In this document: in pieces, positions 6,044 through 18,262 of the stretch
Layout of the letters: each line of letters begins with the position of its first letter
How positions within the stretch are numbered: position 1 is the stretch's first letter
Position numbers and translations under genes: made by a program
The notes under the pieces: model-generated
Database searches by the model: none
What the model saw: only the letters and a program-made list of their open reading frames with translations
What the model was told of the DNA's origin: nothing
Sequence record: MT813197
DNA from: Escherichia phage vB_EcoP_Kapi1
Length of the DNA stretch: 39,436 nucleotides
Direction: 5' to 3' (one strand)

Positions 6044-6667
6044 TTATGCGACCTCGGAAGGAAGTCCAATCATCTTATTCAAATCTTCTACCCGTAAAGC
6101 AGGAAGTGCTGTACTTGCTTTATCTGCTTCTTTTGGTAGCAACTCTTTGCTTTCAGGCCAAACTTCAATAAGTCGCTTAACTGTTGTGACTGAGTTCAAA
6201 GCAGCCCATACATTTGATTCGATATCCTTTTTCTTGGCTTCAAGTTTTTGTTGCAATGCGCAGATTTCATCAAACCTTTTTGTTATTTCGTGTTCTGCGC
6301 TAAACATGCATTTATCTTTGGTCGGAGTAGGGAGCAATATATCTTCGCCGTTGCCGTCTTTCCCATATGAATACCAGCCAACCCTTCTGCCAGATACAGT
6401 CAGATAAATTGAAGTTGAACGGGCATCGCATGAGTAAAATGAACATCCCAGCTTTTCAAGTTCTTCGCTTATAGCCATTAACTTGGATGATAACTGATCC
6501 ACTTCCTCAGTTTTCTTTTTACCGCCAAACACAACAACTCTGGCGTCAAGTGCAAGCTGGTTCTTTAACTTTGTTACTTCTTCAAGCTCAGTGAAAACCC
6601 CAGATTTAATTAAAGCGTTACGAGCGATTTTCTCTTTCATACTCGTTGTTAAGCGGATTGATGACAT
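6044..6667 (-). CDS. Hypothetical protein (207 aa)
   Basis: ORF 6044..6727; start moved to in-frame ATG at 6665-6667, which has a GAGAGG RBS. Confidence 0.5.
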   Translation of the reverse strand: MSSIRLTTSMKEKIARNALIKSGVFTELEEVTKLKNQLALDARVVVFGGKKKTEEVDQLSSKLMAISEELEKLGCSFYSCDARSTSIYLTVSGRRVGWYSYGKDGNGEDILLPTPTKDKCMFSAEHEITKRFDEICALQQKLEAKKKDIESNVWAALNSVTTVKRLIEVWPESKELLPKEADKASTALPALRVEDLNKMIGLPSEVA

Positions 6668-14491: not shown

Positions 14492-14676
14492 ACGCCACAA
14501 TTCAAACGATACCAGAGCTTCTTATCCAGACACGAGGCAATCAGACCGAAGTGGCGAGGATGCTTTCCTGCGCAAGAGGAACAGTGCTCAAGTACAACCG
14601 AGACAGCAAAGGCGAGCGTCACGTAATAGTTAACGGCGTCCTGATGGTCAAACAGGGCAAAAGGGGAAGGCCATGA
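14488..14676 (+). CDS. ninH: NinH
   Basis: 62 aa; GNQTEVARMLSCARGTVLKY matches lambda NinH core as recalled. Confidence 0.75.
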   Translation: MNATIQTIPELLIQTRGNQTEVARMLSCARGTVLKYNRDSKGERHVIVNGVLMVKQGKRGRP

Positions 14677-15296
14677 GACTCGAAAGCGTAGCTAAATTTC
14701 ATTCGCCAAAAAGCCCGATGATGAGTGACTCACCACGGGCCACGGCTTCTGACTCTCTTTCCGGTACTGATGTGATGGCTGCTATGGGGATGGCGCAATC
14801 ACAAGCCGGATTCGGAATGGCTGCATTCTGCGGTAAGCATGAACTCAGCCAGAACGACAAACAAAAGGCTATCAACTATCTGATGCAATTTGCACACAAG
14901 GTATCGGGGAAATACCGTGGTGTGGCAAAGCTTGAAGGAAATACTAAGGCAAAGGTACTGCAAGTGCTCGCAACATTCGCTTATGCGGATTATTGCCGTA
15001 GTGCCGCGACGCCGGGCGCAAGATGCAGAGATTGCCACGGTACAGGCCGTGCGGTTGATATAGCCAAAACAGAGCAGTGGGGGAGAGTTGTTGAGAAAGA
15101 GTGCGGAAGATGCAAAGGTGTCGGCTATTCAAGAATGCCAGCAAGCGCCGCATATCGCGCTGTAACGATGCTAATCCCAAACCTTACTCAACCCACCTGG
15201 TCACGCACTGTTAAGCCGCTGTATGACGCTCTGGTGGTGCAATGCCACAAAGAAGAGTCAATCGCAGACAACATTTTGAACGCGGTCACACGTTAG
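14673..15296 (+). CDS. Q: Late gene antiterminator Q (lambda-type)
   Basis: 207 aa, MRLESVAKFHSPKSPMMSDSPRATASDSLSG...; essentially lambda Q as recalled. Confidence 0.9.
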   Translation: MRLESVAKFHSPKSPMMSDSPRATASDSLSGTDVMAAMGMAQSQAGFGMAAFCGKHELSQNDKQKAINYLMQFAHKVSGKYRGVAKLEGNTKAKVLQVLATFAYADYCRSAATPGARCRDCHGTGRAVDIAKTEQWGRVVEKECGRCKGVGYSRMPASAAYRAVTMLIPNLTQPTWSRTVKPLYDALVVQCHKEESIADNILNAVTR

Positions 15297-15338: not shown

Positions 15339-15568
15339 TTGACTTTTTGAATAAAGTTGGGTAAATTTGACCCAACGATGGGTTAATTCGCTCGTTGTGG
15401 TAGTGAGATAAAAAGAGGCGGCGCTTACTACCGATTCCGCCTAGTTGGTCACTTCGACGTATCGTCTGGAACTCCAACCATCGCAGGCTGAGAGGTCTGC
15501 AAAATGCAATCCCGAAACAGTTCGCAGGTAATAGTTAGAGCCTGCACAACGGTTTAGGGATTTTTTAT
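15339..15568 (+). promoter_or_regulatory. Late promoter pR' (TTGACT -35 at 15339-15344, TAAATT -10 at 15362-15367), qut, 6S leader and tR' terminator
   Basis: Near-identical to the lambda pR'-tR' segment as recalled; ends in GGGATTTTTTATTT. Confidence 0.65.
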
Positions 15569-15570
15569 TT

Positions 15571-15645
15571 GGGTCAGTCGTATAAAGGTCATTACGGAAG
15601 GCTGTTAACCTTCTTATCGTGGTTCGAGTCCACGCTGTCCCGCCA
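15571..15645 (+). tRNA. tRNA-Asn (anticodon GTT), one U-U mismatch in acceptor stem
   Basis: Hand fold: acceptor 6/7 bp, anticodon stem GAAGG/CCTTC with loop CTGTTAA, T-arm CGTGG-TTCGAGT-CCACG, 3' CCA encoded. Confidence 0.6.
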
Positions 15646-15650
15646 AATAT

Positions 15651-15726
15651 GCTGGTTTAGCTCCAATGGTAGAGCAGTCGCCTTGTAAGCGAATGGGTAG
15701 CGGTTCAAGTCCGTTAACCAGCACCA
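15651..15726 (+). tRNA. tRNA-Thr (anticodon TGT)
   Basis: Hand fold: perfect 7-bp acceptor GCTGGTT/AACCAGC, D-arm GCTC/GAGC, anticodon loop CTTGTAA, T-loop TTCAAGT, 3' CCA encoded. Confidence 0.7.
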
Positions 15727-16752: not shown

Positions 16753-17216
16753 GCAGAGTCACCGCGATTATCTCCGCTCTGGTTATCTGCATCATCGTCG
16801 GCCTGTCATGGGCTGTTAATCATTACCGTGATAACGCCATCGCCTACAAAGAACAGCGTGATAAAAAAGTCAGTGAGCTGAAGCAGGCGACCGCCACCAT
16901 TACTGACATGCAGCAACGCCAGCGTGCTGCTGATGCACTCGATGCTAAATACACGAAGGAGTTAGCTGATGCGAAAGCTGAAAATGATGCTCTTCGGCGC
17001 AAGCTTGATAATGGTGGCAGGGTGCTCGTCAAAGGAAAATGCCCTGTGCCATCCTCAGCCGAAACCTCCAGCGCCTCCGGCATGGGCAATGATGCCACCG
17101 TCGAACTCTCTCCAGTTGCTGGACGAAACGTTCTCGGTGTCCGGGACGGAATTATCCGCGACCAAACAGCACTGAGAACGCTTCAGGAATACATCAGGAC
17201 GCAATGCCTTCGATGA
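16749..17216 (+). CDS. Rz: i-spanin Rz
   Basis: 155 aa, N-terminal TM segment then coiled coil; lambda Rz-like N-terminal half. Confidence 0.85.
16969..17175 (+). CDS. Rz1: o-spanin Rz1 (lipoprotein) embedded in +1 frame of Rz
   Basis: Lipobox MVAGC followed by proline-rich [11 protein letters not shown]. Confidence 0.75.
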
Positions 17217-17390
17217 TAGCGATAATTTTACTCATCATCCTTCACATCTGGCCCTGTAGACAGGGTGGTGATCACTTCTGGAGTGAATCCAGATTAAACA
17301 TCTCATTGCTGATGCTTGAAGTTGAGCATATGGCACGCGGTAAGGGGCTGCGTTGAGATAAGAGCCAGTCATCACAAACACCAGGATTTA

Positions 17391-17416
17391 GCCTCGCATT
17401 CGCGGGGTTTTTTATT
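17391..17416 (+). terminator. Putative terminator downstream of lysis cassette
   Basis: Weak hairpin CTCGC-ATTC-GCGGG followed by GTTTTTTATT. Confidence 0.4.
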
Positions 17417-17437
17417 CCCAACTCCATAGGTAATTTT

Positions 17438-17959
17438 ATGACCCAGCATATTGGCGTAAAACTGATTAACGCCTTTCCGATGACGAGACAGGCATATAAC
17501 GATTTTCGTGGCTGGCAGCTTCCTGCCGGAGAAAACGGCGAGGACGAAGGCTATCTTGTTGAATATCTGGATGGCGGAAAACCTAACACCGATCGCTTTG
17601 ATGGCTACGTTAGCTGGAGTCCAAAAGAAGTATTCGAAAAGGCTTATCGTCCGGTATCAGGGCTAAGTTTCGGCCTTGCCATTGAAGCGCTCAAGCAGGG
17701 TAAGAAAGTTGCCCGCGTTGGCTGGAATGGTAAGGGTATGTGGCTGGCATACGTTAAACCGTACACTGAGGCTGTTCATACTGGCAGTACGCCTTGCTTT
17801 TGCAGTCGCGTCTTTGAGTTGCCTGAAGGTACGCATGGGGAATCGAAACGAGCTCCGAAACAACTTCCGTATATCGCCATGAAAACAGCGGACGATAAAT
17901 TAGTGCCGTGGCTGGCTAGTCAGACTGATGTTCTAGCAGAAGACTGGCAAATCATTTAA
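17438..17959 (+). CDS. DUF2829-like protein (candidate Tad2-like signalling-nucleotide sponge), 173 aa
   Basis: C-terminal half ALKQGKKVARVGWNGKGMWLAY ... VPWLASQTDVLAEDWQII resembles the DUF2829 pattern as I recall it; not verified. Confidence 0.45.
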   Translation: MTQHIGVKLINAFPMTRQAYNDFRGWQLPAGENGEDEGYLVEYLDGGKPNTDRFDGYVSWSPKEVFEKAYRPVSGLSFGLAIEALKQGKKVARVGWNGKGMWLAYVKPYTEAVHTGSTPCFCSRVFELPEGTHGESKRAPKQLPYIAMKTADDKLVPWLASQTDVLAEDWQII

Positions 17960-18262
17960 CCATGTAGGCATTACAAAGCCCATCTACGGGTGGGCTTGAT
18001 AATGAAACCGGAATTTATTCTGGGCAACCAATTAACGGCAGTACCACGAAGCAACCCAAGCCAGTAAGTGGGGAAATAACACTGGCAGCCACTGAAAGAT
18101 GAACCTCCTGCCTTATGGCAAAAAAGATTCTTTGTGGTGGCGGACTGATGGAAAGACATCGGTTATTGCAGAGGTCATTCAATGAGTGGTCTCGACAATG
18201 GCTTATACCCTACACGGGATAACTTAATTGATATCCCTTTTAACGGATAAACGGAGCCAACA

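Follow-up and report, generated by a model that had tools for sequence, protein, structure and literature searches.

The window analysed here, a stretch of 39,436 nucleotides (Escherichia phage vB_EcoP_Kapi1, MT813197), is the prophage Kapi1 of Escherichia coli MP1, and our subject is one of its genes, an ATG-to-TAA open reading frame (ORF) on the plus strand at 17438..17959 that encodes 173 amino acids (aa), with a Tad2-like domain behind an N-terminal module. A sequence-only reading of this DNA had likened the product to the DUF2829 (Tad2-like) family, citing the motifs GKKVARVGWNGKG, WLAY and LAEDWQII, all of which are present in it. The MP1 chromosome showed 100% DNA identity to the window region, the prophage there adjoins dsdC, and the MP1 protein (WP_032286577.1) is labelled in RefSeq as 'DUF2829 domain-containing protein'. 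Since the ORF is the 43rd annotated prophage feature and the sole Tad2-like sequence in the window, and since feature 5 agrees with Kapi1_005 of PMC12922286, we identify it as Kapi1_043. The gene and its parts are as follows.

17438..17959, plus strand: complete gene from the ORF list, 173 aa and stop codon; WP_032286577.1 (E. coli MP1), Kapi1_043
17438..17662, plus strand: N-terminal module, residues 1-75, beta-beta-alpha-beta-beta-alpha-beta; predicted local distance difference test score (pLDDT) of 92.8 in the AlphaFold2 (AF2) model
17663..17956, plus strand: Tad2 (DUF2829) domain, residues 76-173, from Pfam PF11195, PDB sequence matches, Foldseek and residue mapping
17747..17878, plus strand: variable Tad2 insertion, residues 104-147, between beta2 and the 'MKTAD' strand, from homolog comparison

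The Tad2 domain and the N-terminal module

Residues 76-173 belong to the Tad2/DUF2829 family and have its fold. Against Pfam PF11195 (Tad2-like), residues 77-173 gave a significant match (E 3.9e-26, 91.8 bits against a cutoff of 25) that covered profile positions 2-73 of 73, which bears out the resemblance noted earlier for the C-terminal half. With phmmer, the solved chains of MoTad2, SptTad2, HgmTad2/AcrIIA7 and SPO1 Tad2 were matched at E 6e-18 to 1e-14; an NCBIfam search of the protein gave no match. The AF2 model of the protein had a mean pLDDT of 83.6, and its residues 76-173 comprise a helix (78-86), a series of strands and a second helix (162-166). When this model was compared with the PDB by Foldseek, the top 24 matches were all Tad2 structures with a probability of 1.0 and target-normalised template modelling (TM) scores of 0.65-0.89, in agreement with the structural kinship that the sequence-only reading had anticipated. 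The interpretation of the gene as a putative Tad2-like sponge is supported by these comparisons. It is not new, because of the RefSeq label and because Kapi1_043 has already been proposed as a Tad2-like anti-defence gene, with its Tad2 homology noted (PMC12922286, 2026); in so large a family, and for a gene already flagged in print, the Tad2 call adds little. The value of the locus lies in the N-terminal module, the aspect deserving follow-up. New here are the homology of this module to the N-domain of RyR Tad, its fusions to six sponge families, and, in relatives of Kapi1, the apparent exchange of insertion cassettes together with an Acb4 gene in the same slot.

The published contacts of SPO1 Tad2 with 3' cyclic ADP-ribose (3'cADPR; W25, N26, W73, S76, T78 and D79) and those of HgmTad2 with glyco-cyclic ADP-ribose (gcADPR; W21, N22, G23, M76, V84, W87, L88, S90, T92 and D93) aligned by phmmer to W96, N97, G98, M148, V156, W158, L159, S161, T163 and D164 of the Kapi1 protein. 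All polar or Trp 3'cADPR contacts of the two proteins are kept, and W96, N97, W158, S161 and D164 were invariant among 53 homologs. Li et al. predicted a non-functional gcADPR site in just ~1% of the short Tad2 proteins that they analysed. The residues that line the cyclic-dinucleotide pocket of HgmTad2 (R31, S47, F70 and N85) are not conserved, the first three corresponding to K107, E127 and Q142 and the fourth being deleted, in an alignment that is uncertain inside the insertion. Because these residues are not conserved, the binding of a CBASS-type (cyclic oligonucleotide-based antiphage signalling system) cyclic dinucleotide, which the sequence-only reading had offered beside a Thoeris signal, is unsupported.

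SPO1 Tad2 (gp34.65; PDB 8SME/8SMF) and HgmTad2, which is AcrIIA7 (PDB 8KBI-8KBM), share with the Kapi1 protein the Pfam family, the fold and the 3'cADPR motifs GWNG and W-x-x-S-x-T-D at ~40% identity over the domain. While both are single-domain proteins of 89-104 aa, the Kapi1 protein has an additional N-terminal module of 75 aa. The closest tested Tad2 domains, Tad2_70 and MoTad2 of a Myroides prophage (PDB 9EIB/8V3E), are 48% and 44% identical, respectively, and likewise lack the module. MoTad2, which superimposes on the Kapi1 model with a Foldseek target TM of 0.89, binds His-ADP-ribose (His-ADPR) and cyclic UMP (cUMP) in two pockets and has W-T-P-S-V-S-D in place of the W-L-A-S-Q-T-D of Kapi1.

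The N-terminal region of about 75 residues, for which the sequence-only reading had no explanation, is real, as the Pfam match spans 77-173 alone and both PHROG and phmmer set residues 1-75 apart as a unit of their own. No Pfam or NCBIfam model matched the module, and its PHROG matches (9467 and 32732) are both of unknown function. Searches of the module against PDB chains by sequence and profile, and against the PDB by Foldseek, gave no matches. Among viral models compared by Foldseek, a RyR-domain protein from Yersinia phage TG1 contained the module, and the module proved to be a homolog of the N-domain of RyR Tad gp68 (hhalign 96.5%, E 7.5e-10). RyR Tad, encoded by Pectobacterium phage vB_PatP_CB1, is likewise a two-domain protein in which the same module precedes a 3'cADPR sponge domain, and its gene also lies in a phage anti-signalling hotspot. 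Its sponge domain, however, is an all-helical RyR repeat (PF02026, C-terminal half) unrelated to Tad2, and RyR Tad is a dimer, whereas a Tad2 protein is expected to be a tetramer.

When residues 1-75 were used as a lone query, 1,587 cluster representatives were found at E<=1e-3, and 846 at E<=1e-10. Among the best 150 of the 1,587, the module stood at the N-terminus in 104, ahead of a partner of 40 aa or more; it was nearly alone in 18, C-terminal in 10 and internal in 18, and it was duplicated in about 6. Its Pfam partners in these 150 representatives were Tad2 (53), PF21825 (38) and PF13876 (20). PF13876 is the Acb4 sponge family. PF21825 is Sequestin; fusion to Tad2 and Acb4 is what led to the discovery of this 3'cADPR sponge. 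The module was also found with a Tad1 domain in one protein (P0242; E 9e-11 to PDB 8KBB) and fused to Lockin, and many of the Sequestin homologs listed in Table S1 carry it, the motif 'SWSPK' occurring there at least 94 times. Judged by sequence comparison, the module is joined to six structurally unrelated validated sponge families, namely Tad2, Sequestin, Acb4, Tad1, Lockin and RyR Tad. As no Pfam model exists for the module, it is invisible to Pfam-based fusion screens, and the Sequestin study sought fusion partners in Pfam only. In the literature searched, we found no statement of this pan-sponge fusion pattern; the module receives passing mention only, as a 'fold with unknown function'.

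We considered whether the fusions could be artefacts of gene calling and rejected this, as the in-frame architecture also occurs in complete isolate genomes. In-frame two-domain fusions are present in Kapi1/MP1, N4, CB1 and Klebsiella phage ST512-KPC3phi13.3, and purifying selection spans the domain junction. Measured against the Klebsiella phage allele, the ratio of nonsynonymous to synonymous substitution rates (dN/dS) was 0.088 for the whole gene, lowest in the N-terminal module (0.057), 0.124 in the Tad2 domain and 0.121 in the insertion. The N4 protein (RefSeq gp49, YP_950527, 160 aa), with which the homologs of G7C and other N4-like phages group, is a module-Tad2 fusion as in Kapi1 (43% full-length identity, E 3e-46). 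Its gene adjoins an Acb4 gene, as the Tad2 gene does in the P22-like slot of E. coli 55989 and phage Huey. It differs from the Kapi1 protein in its insertion type and in the pocket segment (W-V-P-S-Q-S-D), and it belongs to a lytic phage, in a hotspot beside the virion RNA polymerase gene.

Further partners of the module in the top 150 representatives, with no known function, were a WDGH domain (PF25311), DUF7307 and about 35 orphan regions; the proteins with such partners include P0245, P0136, P0169, P0127 and P0139. By the logic of fusion, these are candidate new anti-signalling domains. Tentatively, and with less than even confidence, we suggest that the module may be an unrecognised, widespread sponge-associated domain, either a signal-binding sponge of its own or a universal oligomerisation partner of sponges. 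If so, its unannotated fusion partners would form a ready list of undiscovered anti-signalling proteins. A module that binds a signal would add a new family of sponges, one that occurs in N4 and other model phages, and one that serves in assembly would hold a general lesson on how sponges are constructed; either way, it would provide a search handle for new anti-defence domains.

Insertion types and alleles of the gene

The Tad2 domain of Kapi1 carries a 44-aa insertion whose counterpart builds the second (cyclic-dinucleotide) pocket in HgmTad2. Its length resembles that of the HgmTad2 insertion, but its sequence is unrelated and lacks the cyclic-dinucleotide contacts; it was similar to none of the insertions in tested or solved Tad2 proteins, Tad2_70, MoTad2, HgmTad2 and SptTad2 among them. 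In a set of 113 close homologs with both domains, the module was on average 79% identical to that of the window protein, the flanks of the Tad2 core 83% and 74%, and the insertion 34%. With types defined at >=45% identity, where the 99th percentile of shuffled controls was 31%, the insertions of these homologs fall into about 27 unrelated types. At least nine types occur behind modules that are >=95% identical to that of the window, and 27 of the 28 homologs whose module is >=90% identical have an unrelated insertion. As DNA, the gene matches the alleles of phage Huey, E. coli 55989 and E. coli no107 at 97-100% identity over its first 240 nt; past this point, identity drops to 13-57%, with recovery at the 3' end in Huey. 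Insertions of so many types on a near-constant module and core, together with sharp DNA breakpoints, suggest recombinational cassette exchange of a putative specificity region. The insertion type of the window was found in 15 homologs with modules 46-100% identical, and because the type recurs in this way and has a dN/dS well under one (see above), the insertion is functional and not junk. The exchange of insertions on a constant module provides a natural allele series for mapping ligand specificity.

Several alleles illustrate the history of the gene. An allele that is 92.5% identical over the whole gene, insertion type included, lies in Klebsiella phage ST512-KPC3phi13.3 (L002:4001-4522), an unrelated phage of 63 kb, where it stands beside tRNA-Arg and is convergent with the terminase genes. 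A copy this close in an unrelated phage indicates that the two-domain gene has passed intact from one phage lineage to another by horizontal transfer. The no107 allele (L004:1640-2118) has a frameshift inside the Tad2 domain. RefSeq splits it into a pair of 'Thoeris anti-defense Tad2 family' proteins, and the N-terminal module makes up most of the first. A 215-aa protein encoded on 14 contigs (P0004) is 97% identical to the window protein over its first ~136 residues and then continues with sequence that matches PF16510; its make-up resembles that of a deletion or chimeric variant in which the Tad2 gene would be joined to another phage gene.

The slot between lysis and packaging genes

The gene lies between the lysis cassette and the terminase genes, behind a terminator-like hairpin, just where the sequence-only reading had located it. 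Four features of this setting are listed below.

15339..15367, plus strand: sigma-70-like promoter TTGACT-17-TAAATT, from a consensus scan, just past the Q antiterminator gene
17390..17409, plus strand: stem-loop with a U-run, resembling an intrinsic terminator, 29 nt 5' of the start codon; -14 kcal/mol, z -3.4
17969..18004, plus strand: stable stem-loop without a U-run, 10 nt 3' of the stop codon; -20.4 kcal/mol, z -4.3; not flagged by the terminator scan
18160..18162, no strand: empty Acb4-cassette site, from blastn against 55989 and Huey

Upstream of the gene lie, in order, the genes for holin (15969), endolysin (16276) and Rz (16749) and a 50-aa ORF (17204-17356), and downstream follow a DUF2560 gene (18263), the small and large terminase genes (18704 and 19129) and the portal gene (20546). 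By blastn, the window aligns to 55989 and Huey up to ~18160 and resumes at ~18162, skipping ~413 bp. In both relatives, the skipped cassette (L003:2318-2732 and L001:3340-3754, respectively) lies 3' of the Tad2 gene and carries a 126-aa ORF of the Gp49 family, which is Acb4 (PF13876, E 1.8e-34). The same slot in related P22-like prophages and phages holds other Tad2 alleles, with or without the extra Acb4 gene, which agrees with its earlier description as an accessory slot of P22-like genomes. Phage N4 has an Acb4 and module-Tad2 pair beside its virion RNA polymerase gene (NC_008720 33632-34485; L007:2133-2986), and this position is the N4-like 'anti-signalling hotspot' of a 2026 preprint. Because of the exchanged Tad2 alleles, the optional Acb4 gene and the N4 pair, we regard the slot between lysis and terminase genes as a small anti-signalling locus. 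The numbering of the N4 genes could mislead, as RefSeq 'gp48' is the Acb4/PF13876 protein and 'gp49' the module-Tad2 protein, while Pfam names PF13876 'N4 Gp49'.

The promoter at 15339-15367, which follows the antitermination protein gene annotated at 14673-15296, is the sole strong sigma-70-like promoter upstream on the plus strand (position weight matrix (PWM) score 13.3) and is likely the late promoter that drives the gene. We infer that the gene is transcribed with the late operon by Q-modified polymerase that passes through the 17390 hairpin. The arrangement expected of a moron, with its own promoter 5' and a terminator 3', was not found: no promoter was recognisable in 17217-17437, and the U-run terminator stands upstream of the gene. 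The two flanking hairpins may stabilise the transcript and thereby add to its RNA level. The interval from the Q antiterminator gene to the holin gene also encodes tRNA-Asn(GTT) at 15571-15645 and tRNA-Thr(TGT) at 15651-15726, both on the plus strand, and an antisense signal opposite this pair has been reported in the Kapi1 transcriptome (PMC12922286).

Proposed action of the protein and alternatives

We consider it probable that the Kapi1 protein is a two-domain sponge in which the Tad2 domain sequesters 3'cADPR, the insertion is a swappable specificity element and the module aids dimerisation or assembly. The C-terminal Tad2 domain would form a homotetramer, a dimer of dimers whose pockets lie at protomer interfaces, as expected of the family, and would bury the Thoeris signal made by TIR proteins, 3'cADPR (1''-3' gcADPR), in pockets formed by the GWNG loop and the W-L-A-S-Q-T-D segment. 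With the signal buried, the Thoeris effector would never be switched on. The long insertion would set specificity and may build a second pocket for another ligand. [quoted passage not shown] In that structure, the gp68 N-domain forms a domain-swapped dimer in which beta1 is exchanged between protomers and contributes to dimerisation (bioRxiv 10.64898/2026.06.04.730250); in the AF2 monomer model of the Kapi1 module, beta1 corresponds to residues 2-5. Residing in an anti-signalling slot between lysis and packaging genes, the gene would be expressed late.

Several observations weigh against this interpretation. Two adenine-side contacts of HgmTad2 are changed in the Kapi1 protein (A78 to T150 and T82 to K154). 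Tad2 ligands vary widely, from 3'cADPR, His-ADPR or N7-cyclic ADP-ribose (N7-cADPR) to cyclic CMP (cCMP)/cUMP and cyclic dinucleotides, so the ligand is not readable from the family alone. The insertion was modelled with low confidence, with a pLDDT under 50 at residues 122-134. For the module, the role in dimerisation leans on one crystal structure, that of a homolog ~33% identical, and the motif 'SWSPK' is absent from all 18 Tad2 homologs in Table S2 of the 2025 sponge-diversity preprint. No sigma-70-like promoter was detected directly 5' of the gene by consensus scan and PWM (best score 5.98 in 340 nt upstream), although consensus scans can miss atypical promoters. For a counter-defence gene, expression this high in lysogen cultures is unusual. 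The host MP1 lacks a Thoeris system (PMC12922286) and hence a local target, a situation that agrees with a phage counter-defence serving in other hosts. The literature searched yielded no binding or phage-challenge results for the Kapi1 protein or any module-Tad2 protein.

The alternatives overlap in part with the two-domain 3'cADPR sponge, and all except an anti-CRISPR role retain the protein as a nucleotide sponge. It is possible, if rather unlikely, that the module itself binds a different immune signal, making the protein a dual sponge like the two-system fusions Acb4-Tad2 of Pasteurella phage Pm86, Tad2-Sequestin, and Acb4-Sequestin of Ab09 gp59. Like the Kapi1 protein, these combine a sponge with a second small phage domain, and the fusion partners of sponges have proved to be sponges themselves; Sequestin was discovered by this very criterion. 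The fusion of the module to six validated sponge families and its purifying selection, the strongest in the gene, argue in the same direction, as do its conserved positions, many of them aromatic or basic (K8, R17, Y20, R24, W26, Y43, Y57, W60, F66 and Y70). However, both halves of those fusions are proven sponges, whereas the one tested homolog of the Kapi1 module, the gp68 N-domain alone, was inactive against type I Thoeris (RyR Tad preprint, June 2026, bioRxiv 10.64898/2026.06.04.730250).

We also regard as unlikely a Tad2 sponge with another target, be it His-ADPR (type II Thoeris), N7-cADPR (type IV), the cCMP/cUMP of Pycsar (pyrimidine cyclase system for antiphage resistance) or a CBASS nucleotide held in a second pocket built by the insertion. 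Tad2 homologs as a group act against CBASS, Pycsar and Thoeris types I, II and IV, and a single homolog often inhibits more than one of these systems, according to the per-system results in the main text of the 2025 sponge-diversity preprint, and the closest tested homolog, Tad2_70, inhibits Pycsar. The insertion that could form such a pocket is long, conserved within its type and under purifying selection. While these points would allow another ligand, the 3'cADPR pocket is intact, the cyclic-dinucleotide contacts of HgmTad2 are not conserved (with the uncertainty of that alignment inside the insertion), and the insertion shares no similarity with those of the four Tad2 proteins named above.

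A function on the side of the lysogen, in which the protein alters host nucleotide signalling, or protects its own prophage and blocks abortive responses (lysogenic conversion), appears improbable. In the 2026 transcriptome (PMC12922286), Kapi1_043 ranked first in expression among Kapi1 genes in every lysogen condition, stable hairpins stand on both sides of the gene as in a moron, and HgmTad2 co-purifies with cyclic di-GMP from E. coli. Yet the scaffold and capsid genes were likewise among the top-expressed Kapi1 genes (PMC12922286), which suggests that a large share of the signal comes from spontaneously induced cells that read the late operon, and the high expression in lysogen cultures may reflect such cells. 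The upstream region has no sigma-70-like promoter by the scans given above, and the residues of the HgmTad2 pocket that holds cyclic di-GMP are not conserved.

We rejected an AcrIIA7-type anti-CRISPR, a very improbable reading that draws on similarity to the AcrIIA7 chains 8kbi and 9kzr (E about 1e-15) and on the 'Anti-CRISPR protein' labels of homologous genes in records of phages such as Huey and Louie, since these labels are transferred annotation, AcrIIA7 is HgmTad2, structurally and biochemically shown to be a sponge for gcADPR and cyclic dinucleotides, Cas9 binding has never been shown, the discoverers of Tad2 argue that the family is anti-Thoeris and not anti-CRISPR, and the literature reassigns the AcrIIA7/Tad2 family to signal sponges. 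The host range of the target system counts against it too: E. coli is not known to carry type II-A CRISPR-Cas.

For the question of what the module does, Kapi1 in E. coli MP1 offers a tractable system with an existing transcriptome. Elsewhere in the window, three early-left genes on the minus strand are labelled in RefSeq as an Nmad5-family putative nucleotide-modification protein (6044-6667), a dATP/dGTP pyrophosphohydrolase-domain protein (1287-1934) and an XF1762-family protein (2130-2621); to judge from these labels, they may be further accessory genes of counter-defence or nucleotide metabolism.

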